Source: a virus (taxonomy: Duplodnaviria; Heunggongvirae; Uroviricota; Caudoviricetes). Taken from it: 15,140 nucleotides of DNA. Numbering within the stretch: position 1 is the first letter of the stretch; each line of letters begins with the position of its first letter. Positions 1 through 8,382 of this stretch are shown here, piece by piece. The stretch spans positions 1 through 15,140 of IMG/VR virus record IMGVR_UViG_2698536369_000028. One strand, written 5' to 3'. The position numbers and the translations under genes are program-made. Below the pieces are notes generated by a model that saw only the letters and a list, made by a program, of their open reading frames with translations, did no database searches and had not been told where the DNA came from.

Positions 1-1269
1 ATGCCAAAACTCACAGATATGCAGATCCGCGCATGGATAAAGGCGGGAGACAGATTTGATGGCAAGGCAGACGGCAACGGCCTTTATATTTGCTACCCCA
101 AAAACTACACAGTCCCGTTCTGGCGATTCCGATATAAGCTCGCAGGAAAACAGCGGGCTATGGTTATCGGCTCTTACTCCGAACTGTCACTATCAAAAGC
201 CAGAGAAACAGCAAAAGAGCTGTCAGCCAGAGTTGCTCTTGGCTATGACGTAGCAGCAGAAAAACAGGAACGAAAAGCTGAAGCCCTGGCAAAAATGGAG
301 GCTGAGAAAAACGCCATGCGCGTTTCAGATCTGGCCGCCGAATACTTCGAGCGACAGATACTTCCGAGATGGAAACATCCCGATATCCTTCGCCGGAGAA
401 TTGATAAGGATATTAACCCCTGCATTGGGCATATGAAGGTAGAGGACGTTAAGCCACGCCACATTGACGACATGTTGAAAGGTATCGTTGACCGAGGAGC
501 ACCAACGATAGCAACAGATGTATTACGCTGGACACGCCGTATCTTTGACTATGGGATAAAACGCCACGCTCTGGAGATAAACCCTTGTTCAGCGTTTGAA
601 GTATCTGATGCTGGTGGTAAAGAGGTTTCCCGCGACCGTTGGCTAACTCGCGATGAGCTTATCAAGCTATTCGAGGCTATGCGCACCGCAAAAGGATTCA
701 GCCGCCAGAACGAACTGACATTTAAGCTATTGCTGGCACTATGCGTTCGTAAGATGGAGTTATGCGCCGCACGATGGGAAGAGTTTGATTTAGATGGTGC
801 GGTATGGCATTTGCCGGAAGAACGCAGCAAAAACGGAGACCCTATTGATATACCTCTACCTTCTCCAGCCGTTGAATGGTTGAGAGAGCTACACACCTTT
901 TCATGTAATAGCGCATGGGTGCTTCCGGCCAGGAAGATGCAAAACAGAATGATCCCACATATTCAGGAAAGCACTTTACCCGTAGCACTGGCTAAGGTTC
1001 GCGCCGAAATGCCGGATGTGCCTAATTTCACGATTCACGACTTCCGGCGTACCGCACGTACTCATTTAGCAGCATTGGGTGTTGATCCTGTCGTAGCGGA
1101 ACGATGCCTCAATCATCGCATTAAGGGTGTAGAGGGGATTTATAACCGCCATCAGTATTTTGATGAGCGTAAAGCTGCGCTGGCACAGTGGGCTGATCTG
1201 CTGGTGGAACTGGAAAGCGGAAATGACTACAACGTAACGCCATTCGATAAAGCCAGGAGGCAAATGTGA
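1..1269 (+). CDS. int: Tyrosine recombinase, P4-family phage integrase (422 aa)
   Basis: Seen: N-terminus MPKLTDMQIRAWIKAGDRFDGKADGNGLY and C-terminal HDFRRTART...NHRIKGVEGIYNRHQY. Established: this N-terminal arm-binding pattern and the catalytic R/H/R/Y region are typical of P4-type integrases. Starts at window position 1, so upstream context (att site, tRNA/tmRNA) is not visible. Confidence 0.9.
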   Translation: MPKLTDMQIRAWIKAGDRFDGKADGNGLYICYPKNYTVPFWRFRYKLAGKQRAMVIGSYSELSLSKARETAKELSARVALGYDVAAEKQERKAEALAKMEAEKNAMRVSDLAAEYFERQILPRWKHPDILRRRIDKDINPCIGHMKVEDVKPRHIDDMLKGIVDRGAPTIATDVLRWTRRIFDYGIKRHALEINPCSAFEVSDAGGKEVSRDRWLTRDELIKLFEAMRTAKGFSRQNELTFKLLLALCVRKMELCAARWEEFDLDGAVWHLPEERSKNGDPIDIPLPSPAVEWLRELHTFSCNSAWVLPARKMQNRMIPHIQESTLPVALAKVRAEMPDVPNFTIHDFRRTARTHLAALGVDPVVAERCLNHRIKGVEGIYNRHQYFDERKAALAQWADLLVELESGNDYNVTPFDKARRQM

Positions 1270-1916
1270 ACAACATCTTGAGAAAATCGCCAATCGAACG
1301 GCTTTGTTCATCTGTATCGATTACCCCTCATGAAATGGCTGTGGCCTTGGCTGGCCTAAACCCATCTATGCGCATTAGCGATGTGCCTGAGGAAAATTTC
1401 GAATATGTCGATTTTGTCAGAACTCATCTTGCCAGAGCTATCAAGGTGTACAGAGGTGAAAAAACTAGTAAAGACGAGCCTTGCCATGCCCTTGATATTT
1501 TCTTAGCTTCTTACCCATTTATTGACACAAATACACCAGAAATAATTGTTCAGAAAATATCAGAAGCGATTGATGATTTGCGTGGCACCAAGGGATGGGA
1601 AGAAAAAGCCCGAAATCTTGGAGGACTCCAGTTAGTAAACTACATCAAAGAAACCAACCGCAGCGGACGTGGGCAGCATAGAAAGCAGGATGAGGAAAAC
1701 GGGACAATGAAAATGATGGGGTTGATAGTACATCTGCTGATAAAAAAATCAGGCTCATCTTCCTACATCCAAAATGGGAAACCTAATCGCACAGCTATAT
1801 ACCGTGACATAGAAACCTTAATCAAGGATGAAGGGATATCCCATAAAGGAATAGCAAAAGCCACATTCCTAGAAAAAATCTCACGGGCTTTATTAGCTGT
1901 CCACGATCTCGACTAA
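1266..1916 (+). CDS. Hypothetical protein (216 aa from GTG; alternative in-frame ATG at 1335)
   Basis: Seen: long ORF whose GTG overlaps the integrase stop; AT-rich by eye relative to neighbours; no motif I recognise. Start codon uncertain. Confidence 0.5.
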   Translation: MNNILRKSPIERLCSSVSITPHEMAVALAGLNPSMRISDVPEENFEYVDFVRTHLARAIKVYRGEKTSKDEPCHALDIFLASYPFIDTNTPEIIVQKISEAIDDLRGTKGWEEKARNLGGLQLVNYIKETNRSGRGQHRKQDEENGTMKMMGLIVHLLIKKSGSSSYIQNGKPNRTAIYRDIETLIKDEGISHKGIAKATFLEKISRALLAVHDLD

Positions 1917-2407
1917 TCACTTTTCACGCCCCTCCAAAGCAATGGCGGGGCTTACCTCATATGACGAGGAATTACCTGTTTACCCATCTCCACCAGCATA
2001 GATAATTCTCGCCTAGCCATTGCTATATCTGTTCAGCTTAGTTCATCTGTAATCACCCCATCTCTAAAAGATACGCCAGCTATCATTAGCCATTTTAAGC
2101 CATCATGAGCCATTATAAACCGACTCAACCAATTGAATAATAAAAGATAAAAAGAAATGTAAAAACATGATGAATGACGATGAAAGATATAACTCTTTGA
2201 TAAAACAATGATTTTTTAAAACAGGTAACTAATTGAAAATAAAGAAAATAATTACCCCCCCCTGCATTTGGAATCTTTCAGTGGATCGGTATTTTTTCAA
2301 TAGATTTATAATTTCTTTCGATAGATTCTAGTCTTAATAGAAATACTGTATAGGCAACCACTAAACTTTAAGTAACTTCACGAGCTATCAGAGAGGTTAC
2401 TAGAGAT

Positions 2408-2626
2408 ATGACAGCACACAAGCCAGCATCATCAGCTATCCCAACAACTGGATACATCCGTCGCTTTCGCATGCCGGAATTGCTAGGTGTTTCACTGCCT
2501 ACTATTGATAGATGGGTTAAAAATGGCACTCTTCCACGCCCAGTGAAGCTGACAGATAACGTGACTGCGTTTGATGCGGTGGAAATTAATAACTGGCTGG
2601 CAGAACGCCGAAACACATCAGCCTGA
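2408..2626 (+). CDS. alpA: AlpA-family phage transcriptional regulator / excisionase-like HTH protein (72 aa)
   Basis: Seen: IRRFRMPELLGVSLPTIDRWVKNGTLPRPVKL...AFDAVEINNWL; GAGAGG about 12 nt upstream of ATG. Established: matches the AlpA (Phage_AlpA) HTH pattern and the usual int-alpA neighbourhood. Confidence 0.85.
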   Translation: MTAHKPASSAIPTTGYIRRFRMPELLGVSLPTIDRWVKNGTLPRPVKLTDNVTAFDAVEINNWLAERRNTSA

Positions 2627-2700
2627 TTAAATGACTACGGGGGATGACGTTCTACCCCACCAGCAAATAAAAGTAACTTAATTCGACAGCAGGAGTTTCA

Positions 2701-3399
2701 ATGAAACGTCCAAATATGCCCGTACAGGGGCAGGGCTTCGTTCGGCCTGAAACCAGCATGAGCGATATTCTGGTTAGTCACAAACAGGAGTCGCGCATTG
2801 ATTCGCGCTTATTTGCTGAGCGTATTGGCATAAAGCACAAAAACCTTTATTCGCTCATTCAGAAGCACAAAACCGGATTGCGTGAACTGGGCATCCTTCC
2901 GTTTCAAACGGAGCGATTAAAAACCCGTCAAAATGGGGAGCGTGAACATAAGTTTGCCCTCCTGAATAGCGATCAGTTTGATTACATGTGTCGCATTGTG
3001 CGCGGTCGTGATGATGAACGCATGAACCGCTTCAAGCTGGATGTTACAAAGGCATTTGCAAAGCGTCGCGCCGCTGAACCCGTACGCCGCGAATATCTGC
3101 CGGGCTATCACGAAAGCCGTGAGGGGCTTAAAGCACTGGGTGCAGAACGTCACCACTACATCAATCTGGCACGCACAGAAAACCGTTTTGCCGGATTGGT
3201 AACAGGTGAACGCCAGGCAGCCAGCGATCCGCAGTTAGGTTTGCTGGTGGTCATGCAGAAAATCGAGCAGGCAGCATTTCACGAAGCGATACAGAACGGC
3301 ATGACACCGACCGAAGCGGTGCGGGAGGTTGCCCGCCGCATGGAGACGTTCGCCAGCCTGATAACGTCAGCGCCGTCTCTGGGGGTGAAATATGCGTAA
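2701..3399 (+). CDS. Rha-like phage regulatory (antirepressor-type) protein (232 aa)
   Basis: Seen: N-terminal ILVSHKQESRIDSRLFAERIGIKHKNLYSLIQKH. Inference: resembles the Rha-family N-terminal DNA-binding region from memory; not verified by search. Confidence 0.6.
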   Translation: MKRPNMPVQGQGFVRPETSMSDILVSHKQESRIDSRLFAERIGIKHKNLYSLIQKHKTGLRELGILPFQTERLKTRQNGEREHKFALLNSDQFDYMCRIVRGRDDERMNRFKLDVTKAFAKRRAAEPVRREYLPGYHESREGLKALGAERHHYINLARTENRFAGLVTGERQAASDPQLGLLVVMQKIEQAAFHEAIQNGMTPTEAVREVARRMETFASLITSAPSLGVKYA

Positions 3400-4168
3400 T
3401 TATGTTATCCCGCCCAATCATGAAGGCGGTTATATTTATGTGGCGCTTTCTGACATTGGATTAGTTAAGGTTGGAAAAACCAGAAATGTTTCAGCCAGAA
3501 TGAAACAGCTATCCACTGGTAGCGGCATCGAAATCACTAAAGTTGAGGTGTTGGGGCCATTTGTTAATTACGGACAAGTTGAGTTAGCTATTCATGCAAA
3601 ACTTTCATCAGAACGCCGCTCTGGTGAATGGTTTTCTGCCGATTTGGATACGGTTAAAGCAATTGCCATCGACGCATCAAGAATTGGCACTCCAGGTACG
3701 AAGTTAGTTAATAAAGATGTTAACCATCCAATAATTGTTTACTTGTGGCTTGACGCACATGAGAAACACACCGAGTACGAGAAAAAACTATGTGAAATAC
3801 TGTCTGATAGAGCAATTAACTTTCTTAATAATTATGGTGCGCCTTGCGTCCCATATGTTGCTTTATGCATTCATACAATGGGGCAGGTCATTCTTCAACA
3901 AGGCCAAAAGGCCTACTCTGTGTATCCACGAGGATTTGAAGCGTCCTCATTGCATCAATTAAGGGAGGATTGGGGGAATTTTGCAGATAAAGATATTTTC
4001 GAAAACTCTGAATTTGACGAGTTTCTTATAGATATAAGCGATAAAGATAAATTTAAGTCCGCGGCTGAGAAATGGAGGTCTGAGGCAATAAATAATCTTT
4101 TCGCAGAACTTACAGATGATTACCAGCGCTGGTTAGCCCGCCACATGGAGGTGAGCAGCCATGCGTAA
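3392..4168 (+). CDS. T5orf172 (MUG113, GIY-YIG-like) domain protein with uncharacterised C-terminal half (258 aa)
   Basis: Seen: GYIYVALSDIGLVKVGKTRNVSARMKQLS...ELAIHAKLSSERRSGEWFSADLDTV, the typical T5orf172 pattern (GYIYV, KIGKT, R..L, GEWF). Gene is AT-rich by eye; start overlaps the upstream stop within ATGCGTAA. Confidence 0.7.
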   Translation: MRNYVIPPNHEGGYIYVALSDIGLVKVGKTRNVSARMKQLSTGSGIEITKVEVLGPFVNYGQVELAIHAKLSSERRSGEWFSADLDTVKAIAIDASRIGTPGTKLVNKDVNHPIIVYLWLDAHEKHTEYEKKLCEILSDRAINFLNNYGAPCVPYVALCIHTMGQVILQQGQKAYSVYPRGFEASSLHQLREDWGNFADKDIFENSEFDEFLIDISDKDKFKSAAEKWRSEAINNLFAELTDDYQRWLARHMEVSSHA

Positions 4169-4718
4169 ACCTGTCTTTTATGCCGGGCGCACTGAAATCT
4201 CTGTCATTAAATTCGATGACATTCAGGTGCGCATAGTGAGTATCAACGGCGAACCGTGGTTTGTTGGCGCTGATGTGTGTGCTGCGCTGGAAATCAGCAA
4301 TGTTACTGATGCCGTTTCAGTTCTGGATAACGACGAGGTAATGACCCTAGCTTTAACCGAGGGGCATTCCGGTAAGCGTGGTGGTGCCAGAAGCTGGAAT
4401 GTTGTCTCTGAATCAGGTTTCTACAAACTGATCGCCCGCAGCCGTAAAGCTTCCACACCAGGCACATTTGCGCACCGTTTCAGTAACTGGGTATTCCGCG
4501 AGGTTATCCCTTCAATCCGCAAAACGGGGGGTTATGGTGTTCCGTTTGCCATGCTGAATGATTTCAGTAAACGCCAGGCTGCCTATCAACAGGAAGCCAG
4601 CAAACGCGGTTACAGGTTACAGCAATGCAAAGAGGCAAAAGATGCACTGGAACGAGAAGAGCGGGCGCTATGGCGTAAATATCAGCCTGATTTTCTGGAG
4701 GGTGAAAACAATGTGTAA
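4161..4718 (+). CDS. Bro-N domain protein (phage antirepressor-type, 185 aa)
   Basis: Seen: FDDIQVRIVSINGEPWFVGADVCAALEISNVTDAVSVLD...ESGFYKLIARSRKA...FSNWVFREVIPSIRKTGGY, a classic Bro-N pattern. Start overlaps the upstream stop within ATGCGTAA. Confidence 0.85.
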   Translation: MRKPVFYAGRTEISVIKFDDIQVRIVSINGEPWFVGADVCAALEISNVTDAVSVLDNDEVMTLALTEGHSGKRGGARSWNVVSESGFYKLIARSRKASTPGTFAHRFSNWVFREVIPSIRKTGGYGVPFAMLNDFSKRQAAYQQEASKRGYRLQQCKEAKDALEREERALWRKYQPDFLEGENNV

Positions 4719-4765
4719 CGATCCGAACGTTACAGAAAGAAAAAGCGCTACGTTGCTGGATAACT

Positions 4766-4797
4766 GGCAAAACAAAGGCGACCGGGAGAGGTCGCCA
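4766..4797 (-). terminator. Candidate intrinsic terminator for the leftward small-gene operon
   Basis: Seen: inverted repeat GGCGACC (4777-4783) / GGTCGCC (4790-4796); on the minus strand the hairpin is followed by TTTGTTTTG (complement of 4768-4776). No T-run after the hairpin on the plus strand. Confidence 0.45.
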
Positions 4798-4862
4798 GTG
4801 GGAACAAAGGAAATCAAACGCATCGCCAACAATGCCAGATTTGCAGCTGGTGGGCAATGTGA

Positions 4863-5057
4863 TCAGTCAGATTTGGTTCGTTCCAGGGTTTGCAACGAGA
4901 GCTTTTTCCTGTGCTCTTTAAGGAATTTCTCAAGAGCAAACGAACAAGGTGCGAATCTTTCTGATTCATGTTCATGCGCTATATTTTTGCGTCGTCTCTT
5001 ACGAGTTGGTGATGGTGTTTTGGTTGATTCTTTATCGGTCATTGTGTTGTCCTGCAT
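4863..5057 (-). CDS. Hypothetical small basic protein (64 aa or shorter)
   Basis: Seen: ORF with charged, Lys/Arg-rich composition lying between the small minus-strand gene and the minus-strand terminator. No clear Shine-Dalgarno; start uncertain. Confidence 0.4.
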   Translation of the reverse strand: MQDNTMTDKESTKTPSPTRKRRRKNIAHEHESERFAPCSFALEKFLKEHRKKLSLQTLERTKSD

Positions 5058-5099
5058 AGCAATGCGCCTGCGTTCCTCAAACTATGGCGCTGATAGTGG

Positions 5100-5279
5100 C
5101 TATTCCTGCTCTTTGGCCTTCCGGCGCTGTCGGCGTTTGATCTCGCCGCGCATGGCTGCACTTATAAACTGCCCTGTACTTTCGCCTTCTTCTTTCACGT
5201 TTTCCATGCCTTCAATAATTTCATGGGCAATACGTGCAGTTACAGATTGTGATTTTGCATTCTTTGGACCTGTTGCCAT
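5100..5279 (-). CDS. Small putative DNA-binding protein, possible repressor (59 aa from internal ATG)
   Basis: Seen: AAGGAG 6 nt upstream of the ATG at 5279 (minus strand); protein MATGPKNAKSQSVTARIAHEIIEGMENV... Inference: short strand-then-helix layout looks ribbon-helix-helix-like; it is divergent from an operator-bearing promoter region. Confidence 0.5.
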   Translation of the reverse strand: MATGPKNAKSQSVTARIAHEIIEGMENVKEEGESTGQFISAAMRGEIKRRQRRKAKEQE

Positions 5280-5295
5280 GTCTAACTCCTTATGT

Positions 5296-5395
5296 TTTTG
5301 GTGTAAGACAATATACATGAAAAAAAATTATTTTGAAGGGTTGACGTGTAAGACACTGCTATTTTACATTGTGTCTTACACCTTGTTGGTGCAAG
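5296..5395. promoter_or_regulatory. Divergent promoter/operator region with three copies of a 10-mer
   Basis: Seen: GTGTAAGACA at 5301-5310 and 5346-5355, inverted copy TGTCTTACAC at 5372-5381; TTGACG at 5341-5346 with a possible -10 (TTACAT) about 17 nt downstream for rightward transcription. Sits between divergently oriented genes. Confidence 0.5.
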
Positions 5396-5478
5396 GTGCA
5401 GAAACGACGAAACCCGGCAGTGCTGGAACACTAACCGGGCTTCTAACCACCAACGATAGCAGAAGTATCGAGGTAGCT

Positions 5479-5682
5479 ATGAGAAATCATACCACACACC
5501 CGCAAGGGCGGGACTCGCACAACCTGAATAAATACATCTGGCGTTTTATCGCCCTGAGCACGGCACAACCGCGCGTAATCCACATTGAGGCCACCAGAGA
5601 ACAGGAAGCCCGTCAGCAATCCCCGGCTGGCTGCGTGATGGTATTTACTGCCCGCATCCGTCAGGAGGAACACTATGCGTGA
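5479..5682 (+). CDS. Small protein, Icd-like (host cell-division-inhibitor-like, 67 aa)
   Basis: Seen: GAGGT 5 nt upstream of ATG; KYIWRFIALSTAQPRVIHIEATREQEARQQ...VMVFTARIR. Inference: resembles Icd-like small proteins of P4-type elements from memory; unverified. Confidence 0.5.
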   Translation: MRNHTTHPQGRDSHNLNKYIWRFIALSTAQPRVIHIEATREQEARQQSPAGCVMVFTARIRQEEHYA

Positions 5683-5932
5683 TGAACGATTTATTCTTCT
5701 GGAGCAAAAATTCAGCGAAGCGCCAAAAAATGAAATTGATGCTCTTTTGCATATCGCGAATATGCTAAAAGTAGCAACGTTCCTTATAGTTTCGAATCTG
5801 GAGCATGAAACGGCGTTAGATATACTGAACAGTGCTGTCGATTATTCTGAATATATTGCCGAGGATAAATACAGGCAATTACCAGATTTGTTAACCCATA
5901 AATATAAAGAAGAACCCCATACCGGGAAATAA
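5675..5932 (+). CDS. Hypothetical protein (85 aa)
   Basis: Seen: ORF whose ATG overlaps the upstream stop within ATGCGTGA; lies in a same-strand gene string leading to the primase. No recognised motif. Confidence 0.5.
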   Translation: MRDERFILLEQKFSEAPKNEIDALLHIANMLKVATFLIVSNLEHETALDILNSAVDYSEYIAEDKYRQLPDLLTHKYKEEPHTGK

Positions 5933-5934
5933 AC

Positions 5935-6237
5935 ATGAAGAAGATTAAATTTACTGGCTTAAATGCCAGCGGACAGACTCACCCGAAAATCAGGATCGGG
6001 GATATTTTCCGGGATAAATATGGCGACAGTGTGGTTATTAATTCCGTGTATGAACGGCACATTACATACCGCCGCGCAGGGTACGACTATGACTGTGTGA
6101 TGCCCGTTCATCAGTTCCGGCGTGATTTTTCACTGGTATGTGCAGCACCACGCAGTAAGCCCACCAGTAAAGAGAAAGCACGGGCAAATATTCAGGTAAT
6201 AAAGAACATGATTAACGCATTCAGGGGCAAGAAATGA
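5935..6237 (+). CDS. Hypothetical protein (100 aa)
   Basis: Seen: ORF whose stop overlaps the primase start as ATGA. No recognised motif. Confidence 0.5.
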   Translation: MKKIKFTGLNASGQTHPKIRIGDIFRDKYGDSVVINSVYERHITYRRAGYDYDCVMPVHQFRRDFSLVCAAPRSKPTSKEKARANIQVIKNMINAFRGKK

Positions 6238-8360
6238 AACGCGCACCGAATTTAAAGCACCAGCCGAAAGACAAAATGACGGAGGTGATTATCTTTGCGG
6301 GTAGTGATGCCTGGGCACATGCGAAAGAGTGGAGCGAATGGGCCGGAAAGCATATTGCGGCAGATGATACACATCCAGTTATTCTTGGACCGGAACAACT
6401 GGCGAGTCTGGCAGACACGCAAATCATCGACAAAGGGCGCTATTACGTGCGCGTTTATCGTGCTGGTGAAATATCAGAGCAGCACCTTACACAGATAGCG
6501 ACACTGCTTGCAGTGGCGGGTGTGAAGGAGGCGCGTTGCTACCGCAGCTTTGTTGACCAGCAGCCGGAGGACTGGACACCGCGCATGGCTGGACTGAAGG
6601 ATGATGCGGAACGCGGTAACAGTCTGGTGTTCAACCTTCCGGCAAAGACAAATTTCACCGGAAATTATGATGACGAATTAAAGCCTCGTGTTGAAAGTCG
6701 CGTCGATGGTGTTTTCTGGGTAACGCCCAAAGTGGACAAGCAGTCAGGCGAAATTATCCGGCCTGAGACGTGGTTATGTTCTCCGCTTGAACTACTGGGA
6801 ACAGGAACAATCGGCAAAGAGCATTACCGCGTGATGCGCTGGAAAAAACCAGCAAACCATGAGGTCATTACAATGGCGGTCCCGTGCGGAGGCATTGGTG
6901 ACCGTGACGGCTGGCGGTTGCTGAAAGACCACGGTCTTAACGTGACGACCAACGGCAAATACAGAGCCATCCTGGCTGACTGGATGCAGTTAAGCGGAAG
7001 TCATGAGGAATGGCAGCTAAGCACTACAACGGGCTGGCATTTTGGTGCGTACATCATGCCGGATGGTTCGGTCATTGGTGAATCAGAGAAACCCATCCTG
7101 TTTACCGGAAAAACTGCCGCAGTTAATGGCTATTCCGTGGCGGGAACAGCGGAGGGCTGGCGCGATACCGTGGCGCGGCTGGCTGGTGGTAATCCGTCCA
7201 TGATGCTGGGTGTGGCGGTATCGCTATCCGCACCATTAATCGGGCTGGTGGGTGCTGACGGCTTCGGGGTTCATCTTTTTGAGCAATCATCAGCAGGTAA
7301 AACCACCACACAGAACATTGCATCAAGTTTATGGGGAGAGCCGGACGCGCAACGGCTGACCTGGTACGGAACGGCGTTAGGTATCGCCAACGAGGCCGAA
7401 GCACATAATGACGGGCTGTTACCCCTGGATGAAATAGGCCAGGCCGGAAACGCACGGGAGGTGTCCACGTCAGCCTATACGCTGTTTAACGGTTCCGGGA
7501 AATTACAGGGGGCGAAGGACGGCGGCAACAGGGAGATAAAACACTGGCGCACGGTGGCAATCAGCACCGGAGAAATGGACGTTGAAACATTCCTCAAAAC
7601 GGAAGGGATAAAAATTAAAGCGGGGCAGCTTGTCCGTCTGCTTAACGTACCGATGGAAAAGGCCTCGCAGTTTCACGAATACAGCACCGGAAAGGCGCAC
7701 GCAGACGCGTTAAAAGATGCCTGGACAGAAAATCACGGGGCGGCAGGTCGTGAGTGGGTTAAATGGCTGGCAGGCCACCAGCAGGAGGCAAAGGACGCGG
7801 TAAGGGCATGTCGCGAACGGTGGCGCAACCTGATACCGGAGAGCTACGGCGAGCAGGTTCACCGTGTGGGGGAAAGATTCGCCGTACTGGAGGCCGCGCT
7901 TGTGCTTTCCGGTCATGTTACAGGCTGGGATGTTCAGGCGTGCCGTGATGCAGTTCAGCATAACTTTAATGCCTGGGTGAAGGAATTCGGCACGGGCAAC
8001 AGGGAATTTAAACAGATGGTTGAACAGGCTGAGGCGTTTTTGTCGTCGTTCGGGTTCAGTCGATACCTTCCTTATCCAAACAGCGACGAGCGTGATTTAC
8101 CGATTAAAGACCTTGCCGGATACAGAAAGGGGAGTATCAGAAACGAAGATGACGAGTTCCGTTTTTACACGTTCCCGCATGTGTTTGAGGGTGAGATAGC
8201 ACAGGGATTTAATCCGTCTCACTTTGCCCGCGCGTTGAGTGCTGCCGGAATGCTGGAAGCGGGAGGCGACCGCCGTTACAAGAAAAAGGCGCTCGGCAGG
8301 ATTGGCGGGAAGCAGCATATTTTTTACGTGCTGATGTTCCAGCCTGAAGCAGAAGATTAA
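6234..8360 (+). CDS. Replication protein: primase (Toprim-like N-terminus) with a P-loop NTPase/helicase-like C-terminal region (708 aa)
   Basis: Seen: N-terminal TEVIIFAGSDAWAHAKEW...PVILGPEQ (Toprim-like) and a central P-loop-like SSAGKTT. Inference: D5/DUF927-type primase-helicase, consistent with the adjacent iteron origin, SSB and int/alpA backbone. Confidence 0.8.
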   Translation: MKRAPNLKHQPKDKMTEVIIFAGSDAWAHAKEWSEWAGKHIAADDTHPVILGPEQLASLADTQIIDKGRYYVRVYRAGEISEQHLTQIATLLAVAGVKEARCYRSFVDQQPEDWTPRMAGLKDDAERGNSLVFNLPAKTNFTGNYDDELKPRVESRVDGVFWVTPKVDKQSGEIIRPETWLCSPLELLGTGTIGKEHYRVMRWKKPANHEVITMAVPCGGIGDRDGWRLLKDHGLNVTTNGKYRAILADWMQLSGSHEEWQLSTTTGWHFGAYIMPDGSVIGESEKPILFTGKTAAVNGYSVAGTAEGWRDTVARLAGGNPSMMLGVAVSLSAPLIGLVGADGFGVHLFEQSSAGKTTTQNIASSLWGEPDAQRLTWYGTALGIANEAEAHNDGLLPLDEIGQAGNAREVSTSAYTLFNGSGKLQGAKDGGNREIKHWRTVAISTGEMDVETFLKTEGIKIKAGQLVRLLNVPMEKASQFHEYSTGKAHADALKDAWTENHGAAGREWVKWLAGHQQEAKDAVRACRERWRNLIPESYGEQVHRVGERFAVLEAALVLSGHVTGWDVQACRDAVQHNFNAWVKEFGTGNREFKQMVEQAEAFLSSFGFSRYLPYPNSDERDLPIKDLAGYRKGSIRNEDDEFRFYTFPHVFEGEIAQGFNPSHFARALSAAGMLEAGGDRRYKKKALGRIGGKQHIFYVLMFQPEAED

Positions 8361-8382
8361 CTTCCCTGTGTGAGGTAAAAAG

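Follow-up and report, generated by a model that had tools for sequence, protein, structure and literature searches.

An uncharacterised gene and a four-box alpA promoter form a candidate regulatory cassette in Gram-negative phage satellites

The silencing of Gram-negative phage-inducible chromosomal islands (PICIs), and the activation of their gene alpA by a helper phage, are not yet explained: the helper is known to induce alpA, and no global repressor of these elements has been described (PMC6092414, PMC11773190). AlpA itself acts as the satellite's master activator and as an excisionase-like regulator (PMC6092414, PMC11773190). The stretch of DNA analysed here, positions 1 to 15,140 of the IMG/VR record IMGVR_UViG_2698536369_000028 (15,140 nucleotides, hereafter the window), comes from a phage satellite of the Gram-negative PICI or P4-like kind that is integrated at yicC, and forms the satellite's left end. 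Between its integrase gene int and alpA lies an open reading frame (ORF) for a 216-residue protein, ORF216. Is this gene part of the cargo, or part of the switch? We find that ORF216 travels with four co-oriented copies of a box, consensus TTTYRATRGAAT, on the alpA promoter. From its sequence context it is probably a regulator of the alpA switch and not random cargo, and we see an even chance that its protein binds the boxes and controls alpA.

The spacer between ORF216 and alpA (1917–2407) is 491 nt long with a GC content of 35.0%. The sole ORF of at least 40 residues that reaches into it is an antisense frame (2368–2616), and only by its tail; most of that frame lies over alpA. This is much as an earlier reading of the window, made from its letters alone (the sequence-only reading), had described it, at about 490 bp of AT-rich and ORF-free DNA. 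The four boxes (2276–2343) are all on the coding strand, with spacings of 19, 21 and 16 nt in the window. An inverted half-site often follows the third box, for example AATGGAATTCCATT in locus L022; L022 and L034 show this palindromic extension more clearly than the window does. The half of box 4 that reads TGGAAT or TAGAAA occupies the −35 position, 17 nt from a −10 element of the form TAnnnT. The distance from the start of box 4 to this element is 29–30 nt, as measured in the window and in L012 and judged by eye in other aligned loci, and the geometry is conserved in an anchored comparison of 18 loci. That fixed distance bears out the suggestion of the sequence-only reading that the spacer holds the alpA promoter, and alpA transcription would start near 2374. 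The boxes themselves, which are more conserved than the AGCCATT-like words to which that reading drew attention, are absent from it. A simple scan of 1100–2800 for sigma-70 promoters and terminators gave counts at chance level, and a window-wide count of box-like 12-mers with three mismatches allowed is uninformative (17 against 18.6 expected); the box signal lies in clustering and phasing.

The association between gene and boxes is close. Four boxes on one strand, at about −130, −110, −90 and −73 from the alpA start codon and with spacings of about 20, 21 and 16 nt, are present in 10 of the 13 family loci scanned, including those of members with 23–33% protein identity. Three loci depart from this pattern: L019 is a decayed island that lacks alpA, L010 probably has a mis-annotated alpA start, and L007 has three to four boxes that lie farther from the next annotated gene. 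A blind scan for three exact boxes in one genome per species (185,579 genomes) returned 20 hits. Nine of these adjoin alpA, all nine with an ORF216 homologue just upstream, and the other 11 are in non-Enterobacterales genomes that have neither ORF216 nor alpA. Among IMG/VR viral contigs all 21 box hits are in the ORF216–alpA context, and the ORF is present in all 19 that have upstream DNA; many of these hits are close relatives and so are not independent. Taking both scans together, the ORF lies upstream in 28 of 28 assessable alpA-adjacent hits. Approached from the side of AlpA, 51 assessable viral contigs of the window's AlpA clade comprise 5 with ORF and boxes, none with the ORF only, none with boxes only and 46 with neither. 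Neither the 28 blind hits nor the 51 AlpA-clade loci include an ORF216/box recombinant. ORF216 was not seen independent of its neighbouring core regulatory sites, and the box promoter is present wherever alpA follows. By these comparisons ORF216 and the boxes form a unit, because their linkage has outlasted divergence to about a quarter protein identity and the exchange of int, alpA and replicase partners.

Elements that lack ORF216 show what the boxes do not belong to. At the yicC site, elements whose int is 78–100% identical to that of the window carry unrelated genes of 293, 307, 316 or 321 residues in the same slot, followed by a spacer of just about 105–115 nt (L014, L015, L016 and L018). 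Over most of its length, int in L014 (321 residues) and L018 (293 residues) is 95–100% identical to that of the window; in L015 (316 residues) and L016 (307 residues) int is more distant. AlpA is encoded by a gene 96% identical to the window's in L018 and 67–70% identical in L014–L016, and none of the four loci has boxes. Conversely, the AlpAs of box-bearing loci are down to 14–29% identical to the window's and differ in their recognition-helix sequences. We therefore rejected the boxes as autoregulatory sites of AlpA, since a locus with the window's alpA allele lacks them and loci with very different AlpAs have them. Nor are the boxes tied to Int, because L014 and L018 share a near-identical int and have none. 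To our knowledge no consensus for IHF, H-NS, DnaA, IclR or ArcA fits the box in both sequence and spacing.

The same comparison delimits what is exchanged. Identity between L018 and the window drops from about 1080 to reach random level by about 1260, and returns to 95–100% at about 2372. Judged from these alignments, the exchanged block is ORF216 plus the entire spacer up to the hairpin in the alpA 5′ untranslated region (5′-UTR), and the swappable cassette spans about 1245 to 2371, that is ORF216 and roughly 455 nt after it. Family members of readable context all lie directly after a P4-type int, which they overlap by 1 or 4 nt in the window, L003, L010, L012, L013, L021 and L022, and after a spacer of about 272–670 nt comes alpA, except in L007 and L019, where none is annotated. 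The spacer layout is the same after homologues of merely 23–33% protein identity. The carriers differ widely in kind: they include a capsid-forming PICI of Klebsiella that was obtained as an 'induced prophage' (L003, LR881103), P4-like elements (L008 and L010) that carry Phage_cap_P2, Ash or Ogr/Delta genes, and elements with an AAA_25 replicase (L004). Among the contexts examined, no member was found outside the post-int position.

These results qualify the comparison made by the sequence-only reading with the yfjH slot of CP4-57, a position taken to hold accessory genes. The position is indeed the same, and the variability expected of such a slot is seen; homology to yfjH, however, is lacking (hhalign probability 0.3%), and yfjH is on the opposite strand. 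ORF216 is likewise unrelated to the other occupants of the slot, and its constant place after int, with one spacer layout, does not suit free-floating cargo. In 46 of the 51 satellites with a window-type AlpA (L065–L121, IMG/VR contigs) alpA begins about 2.1–3.0 kb into the stored locus; many of these 46 loci begin at a contig end. This distance would suit an int and a slot of at least about 1 kb, so the slot seems nearly always to be filled by some gene. Between the 316–321-residue slot gene and the alpA leader, L014 (7340–7375) and L015 (7235–7270) have a rho-independent terminator followed by a palindrome, TGTAyATATrTACA (TGTTCATATATGTACA or TGTATATCTATACA). It is a possible operator for another regulator occupying this slot.

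ORF216 is a real gene under purifying selection. Compared with homologues of 68–72% identity in L012 (E. coli O157) and L013 (K. pneumoniae), nonsynonymous divergence (pN) is 0.18 against a synonymous divergence (pS) of 0.76–0.79, the latter being saturated. Its GTG start overlaps the int stop in the sequence ATGTGA (TGA at 1267–1269), as the sequence-only reading had it, and is supported as the start because homologues begin at the same residue. The AT-richness ascribed to the gene is also confirmed (42.2% GC against 49.2% for int and 48.1% for the window). That the frame is a spurious one in AT-rich intergenic DNA could be argued from the GTG start and from the lack of any annotated domain, and was the condition under which the sequence-only reading would have given it up. 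This pattern of conservation refutes it, as do homologues that keep their length down to about 23% identity, a confidently predicted fold (see below) and a perfect Shine–Dalgarno sequence, and we give it practically no weight. Among 5.8 billion proteins, a word-indexed search returned 19 relatives; they come from Enterobacterales without exception, and none has a name. A HMMER scan of 1.84 billion representatives found 35, of which 23 have E ≤ 1e-10 and about 20 are full length (206–241 residues). One match (P0045, 1388 residues, nine matched stretches) is a PPR-repeat protein and was discarded as a low-complexity false positive. As far as these searches reach, the family is small and restricted to satellites of Enterobacterales; a homologue is present in 203 of 5,426 complete E. 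coli genomes (about 4%).

The features of the cassette and its surroundings are collected in Table 1. Between ORF216 and the boxes the spacer is built from two further kinds of sequence. GC content falls to 29–33% in 1951–2400, which is in the AT-rich range of H-NS-silenced (xenogeneic) regions, and the AT-rich tract just upstream of the boxes has a visible equivalent in homologous spacers. Upstream of this tract the window has an array with a 10-nt (20-nt) period, and a solitary TAGCCATT at 2014–2021. The spacers of ORF216 loci contain one to three such short tandem arrays with a period of 10 nt and a locus-specific unit. Of 18 loci, 14 match themselves best at a lag of exactly 10, and for 13 of these no more than 6 of 300 shuffles score at least as high; in the window the self-match peaks at lag 20, with lag 10 second. 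The array sequence is not kept even between ORF216 proteins that are about 70% identical, and the words of the spacer array recur nowhere else in the element. The repeated AGCCATT-like words of the sequence-only reading are one local instance of these cassette-wide, locus-specific arrays. They exist, but not where that reading put them (2009–2070): AGCCAT occurs at 2015, 2088, 2098 and 2108.

Table 1. Positions of the principal features in the window
Feature	Position	Strand	Details
Shine–Dalgarno sequence of ORF216	1255–1260	+	AGGAGG, within the int 3′ end, 5 nt before the GTG at 1266
ORF216	1266–1916	+	216 residues; PHROG 30524
Hairpin directly after the ORF216 stop	1928–1951	+	−15 kcal/mol, z −2.85; without a U-tract
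Tandem array	2078–2137	+	10-nt units AGCTATCATT, AGCCATTTTA, AGCCATCATG, AGCCATTATA (core 2078–2117), then decaying copies
AT-rich tract	2117–2262		about 30% GC, between arrays and boxes
Box 1	2276–2287	+	TTTCAGTGGATC; position weight matrix (PWM) score 10.8; 132 nt before the alpA ATG
Box 2	2295–2306	+	TTTCAATAGATT; PWM 13.9; −113
Box 3	2316–2327	+	TTTCGATAGATT; PWM 13.4; −92; then inverted half-site ATAGATTCTAG (2321–2331)
Box 4	2332–2343	+	TCTTAATAGAAA; PWM 12.8; −76; 3′ half TAGAAA (2338–2343) at the −35 position
Putative alpA −10 element	2362–2367	+	TAAACT (TAnnnT)
alpA 5′-UTR hairpin	2371–2403	+	GUAACUUC (2372–2379) pairs with GAGGUUAC (2393–2400); covers the Shine–Dalgarno sequence; −12.1 kcal/mol, z −2.5
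alpA	2408–2626	+	Pfam Phage_AlpA, E 6e-6
Iteron-type replication origin	8384–8520		four direct TAACCCGCA (8446–8508; spacings 11, 21 and 21 nt); inverted form TGCGGGTTA twice (8384–8401)

Two hairpins bound the spacer. The one directly after the ORF216 stop is likely the 3′ end of the int–ORF216 transcript, and most of the other spacers compared also have a hairpin there, of unrelated sequence (by eye, unscored). The second, in the alpA leader, marks the right-hand boundary of the cassette. It is also present (GUAAC with GAGGUUAC; z −2.3 to −3.2) in L014 (7392–7432) and L018 (4499–4532), and since these loci have no boxes the hairpin belongs to alpA and not to the cassette. This conserved burial of the Shine–Dalgarno sequence suggests a separate, translational control of alpA. 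No Rfam family matches the spacer.

The protein gives few clues by homology, in line with the remark of the sequence-only reading that it has no recognisable motif. The only family match is to PHROG 30524 (function not assigned; E 3e-34, residues 11–209 against positions 14–213 of the 220-position profile). Single-sequence and profile searches gave no usable match in Pfam, NCBIfam, PADLOC or PDB sequences, and in PADLOC-DB 2.0 no defence family is matched at E ≤ 0.1. A hit to the UME domain (PF08064, E 0.063) was dismissed as noise. There is no match to Phage_AlpA or to the helix-turn-helix (HTH) family HTH_17, one of 24 family members reaching E 0.024, below threshold. The AlphaFold model, computed from a 24-sequence alignment, is all-helical with a predicted local distance difference test score (pLDDT) of 90.6; a run with 11 close sequences gave 63.5, and the 24-sequence run was used instead. 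A structure search with this model matched no known fold (the Foldseek comparison with 6h4c, at E 6.5, is not significant). Conserved across the family are the segments GLNP (at about residue 30), TPE (90–92) and LGG (118–120), the loop SGRGxHRKxDE (residues 133–143), which is flexible and AT-hook-like and joins two helical domains, and a C-terminal helix with the motif KGxxKSTFYxK. The C-terminal half is basic (isoelectric point 9.35, against 5.9 for the N-terminal part). This basic half, with its loop and helix, is compatible with DNA binding. We found no paper on the accessions of ORF216 proteins or on PHROG 30524, and neither the family nor the box array is described in the PICI papers examined; EcCIMP1_002, which occupies the same slot in another PICI, is a different, small protein. 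The exchange of a mobile-element regulator with its operator as an immunity-like cassette is familiar; the protein family, the fold and the four-box architecture appear to be new.

These observations suggest the following model. The genes int and ORF216, their start and stop codons overlapping, would form one operon whose transcript ends at the hairpin at 1928–1951, and the cassette would supply the promoter of alpA, the on-switch of the satellite. ORF216 would occupy the four boxes, the last of which lies on the −35 element, and so set alpA transcription. Made together with Int, it would hold alpA, and hence excision and replication, off until a helper phage relieves the block. The locus-specific 10-nt arrays and the AT-rich tract may modulate the alpA promoter, the arrays serving as landing pads for an oligomerising protein encoded by helper or satellite, or merely bending the DNA. 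As to the direction of control we lean towards repression, because ORF216 would be made with Int and insulated from alpA by the hairpin, because the promoter-proximal box sits on the −35 element, and because the layout parallels operons of repressor and int that face an excisionase-first lytic operon, as in P2 and the Staphylococcus aureus pathogenicity islands (SaPIs). A further reason for this preference is that AlpA overexpression is harmful, so that alpA must be held off until the helper arrives (PMC6092414). The alternative is that ORF216 acts as an activator that needs a helper signal.

Several points weigh against a role for ORF216 at the boxes. The strict co-occurrence could be plain physical linkage within a block-exchanged cassette. 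The boxes are better conserved than the protein, which fits a conserved host or helper factor as their binder too. Many satellites of the same AlpA clade work without the cassette, so it is not essential to the life cycle, and sequence by itself does not separate activation from repression. The main rival reading is that ORF216 is accessory cargo, for example a single-gene system of anti-phage defence or superinfection exclusion, in the 5′ accessory region of the PICI, with the boxes representing a type of alpA promoter that is bound by a host or helper factor and is linked to ORF216 within one exchanged block. The slot does hold at least four other, unrelated genes, PICIs have been reported with immune systems at their 5′ or 3′ ends (PMC11364771), the member in the decayed island L019 adjoins Abi_alpha and Mrr-like genes, and ORF216 is AT-rich relative to int. 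Against cargo stand the absence of any PADLOC match and the confinement of the family to the post-int position, when known defence genes usually occur in many contexts. The box linkage has moreover survived divergence to 23–33% protein identity and AlpA partners merely 14–29% identical, and no recombinant turned up on either side of the search. We consider the cargo explanation possible, though doubtful.

Two further roles would place ORF216 with other functions of the element. Its place immediately 3′ of int, with stop and start often overlapping, would be explained if it were a partner of the integrase, as a directionality or accessory factor or a chooser of the integration site. An int that is 95–100% identical over most of its length nevertheless works at the same yicC site with unrelated slot genes. 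The boxes sit right at the alpA promoter and some 2 kb away from attP, the likely arm-type sites of the integrase (below) differ from both boxes and arrays, and an excisionase-like function is already supplied by AlpA; such a partnership is very unlikely. That the spacer is instead a replication or partition locus for a plasmid state, with iterons and AT-rich unwinding DNA or a centromere-like array to which ORF216 binds, could account for the tandem 10-nt repeats beside an AT-rich tract and for the existence of a related element as a 12-kb circle. Some arrays also hold GTTCAT or GTTCAC words, which we take to resemble the type I iterons of P4. A canonical iteron origin, however, already lies downstream of the primase gene, its iterons differing from the words of the spacer, and we rejected the spacer as the replication origin. 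The spacer array words are absent elsewhere in the element, no partition NTPase is encoded, and the array sequence is not conserved between ORF216 proteins of about 70% identity. We regard a replication or partition role as very unlikely.

A bolder extension of the model is that the ORF216 family is the missing helper-sensing master regulator of a Gram-negative satellite lineage (with PICIs, capsid-forming PICIs and P4-like elements among its members), an analogue of Stl with a new fold and a four-box operator. The arrays would then be helper-specific landing pads, the genes of 293–321 residues in other elements alternative regulators, and the slot an 'immunity region' and not a cargo bay. We offer this tentatively, as a proposition that may well prove too broad. 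In the SaPIs, Stl keeps the island off until the helper relieves it, and stl and int face str and xis. Like the Stl/Rpr proteins of SaPIs and other Gram-positive PICIs, ORF216 is encoded beside int at the edge of the putative regulatory switch, is helical (Stl/Rpr being about 200–280 residues), is highly diversified between elements and would couple induction to the helper. It differs from them in that it shows no sequence or fold similarity (the 6h4c comparison above) and lies co-directional with alpA, downstream of int, where Stl/Rpr genes are divergent from the operon they repress; the searches made detected no HTH in it. Its putative operator consists of four direct repeats, at which its binding and derepression are presumed.

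Other systems offer partial parallels. In phage P2 the C repressor and int form one operon facing the cox promoter. Similarly, the candidate repressor here would be co-transcribed with int, its presumed direct-repeat operator has repeats two helical turns apart on an early promoter, and the first gene under control would be the Xis/Cox-like counterpart, alpA. The P2 C protein is unrelated and about 99 residues long, the gene order and orientation differ, and P2 has two half-sites against the four boxes here. In P4, Cox boxes of P2 lie upstream of vis, the AlpA homologue, at the promoter PLL, and the helper's Cox switches the satellite on. Both would have an operon that begins with alpA or vis and, ahead of it, direct repeats in tandem that recur about every 10 nt, but similarity to the cox-box consensus is not established and the arrays here vary by locus, so that the parallel is no more than an analogy. 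With the 5′ accessory (immune) region of PICIs and the yfjH slot of CP4-57 the cassette shares its position between int and alpA and its variability among near-identical elements; unlike that cargo or YfjH, to which it is unrelated, ORF216 matches no defence family and is locked to one promoter architecture. Finally, as in the swapping of lambdoid immunity regions (imm434, imm-lambda), a regulator, here a candidate one, and adjacent cis sites are exchanged as a block with conserved sequence on either side, which in the satellites is the 3′ end of int and the hairpin of the alpA 5′-UTR. This likeness is one of population genetics only, the molecular parts being unrelated.

The cassette thus offers a concrete candidate for the silent state of these satellites, consisting of one protein and a 110-nt operator–promoter with defined boxes. 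It is not confined to the E. coli genomes counted above, but also occurs in Klebsiella capsid-forming PICIs, one of them from an induced lysate. If the proposal is true, a new DNA-binding fold would be added, and a slot usually read as accessory cargo would be seen differently. If it is wrong, the cassette would still be an unusually clean case of a promoter architecture tied to an uncharacterised gene.

The window starts at the start codon of int (1–1269, + strand), a P4-type tyrosine integrase gene with the Pfam domains Arm-DNA-bind_3, Phage_int_M and Phage_integrase, and the main genes are all on one strand, with int first, ORF216 second and the AlpA-family gene third. There follow Rha, T5orf172/GIY-YIG, Bro-N, an Icd-like region, DUF4222, the DUF927 primase (6234–8360), with the iteron origin directly downstream of it, SSB, a ProQ/FinO-like protein and two large proteins resembling podovirus internal virion proteins. 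By gene content this layout matches the four zones (integration, Bro, replication and late) described for Gram-negative PICIs (PMC10111431). The element lies directly after yicC in E. coli TUM9803 (99.6% identical), and the yicC junction is seen in L001. A 12,152-bp circular 'plasmid' of a chicken E. coli isolate (NZ_CP148430.1, L002) encodes an identical ORF216 protein (WP_001059729.1) behind which lies a near-identical spacer, and has an attP at about 9260–9560 that includes the yicC 3′ end; by these features the circle is an excised relative of the window's element. Repeats resembling GTGTACATA occur four times just upstream of int and twice on the opposite attP arm (L001 14900–14975; L002 9266–9290 and 9480–9530). 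Flanking the att core, they are probably the arm-type sites of the integrase. We rejected the AGCCAT words of the spacer as arm sites, since the attP arms carry GTGTACATA and neither AGCCAT nor boxes.

A few minor observations concern other parts of the element. The 8-mer AGCTATCA is found three times in the window (1436, 2078 and 2383, the last in the alpA leader) against 0.43 expected, and twice more in the attL region (L001 14812 and 14885), including the yicC stop inside the att identity block. The T5orf172/GIY-YIG-like protein (3392–4168) matches the PADLOC candidate defence family PDC-S57 (E 9e-8). A 374-residue open frame on the + strand (4558–5682) runs across the 3′ end of Bro-N and the Icd-like region; it is missing from the RefSeq annotation of TUM9803 (99.6% identical), which instead places several short genes there, on either strand, and it is probably not a gene. 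At 5406–5478 (− strand), near the Icd-like and YlcI/YnfO genes, the SymR antitoxin RNA of Rfam is matched below threshold (33 bits, where the gathering score is 61; E 0.005); P4-like immunity RNAs have been reported from this zone in PICIs of the same type. The two large genes at the end of the window (10596–15055; 843 and 642 residues) match 'head protein', transglycosylase and internal-virion families (PHROG 992 and 1145) and appear to be late genes that the satellite has taken from a helper; ISVsa5 truncates this region in TUM9803.

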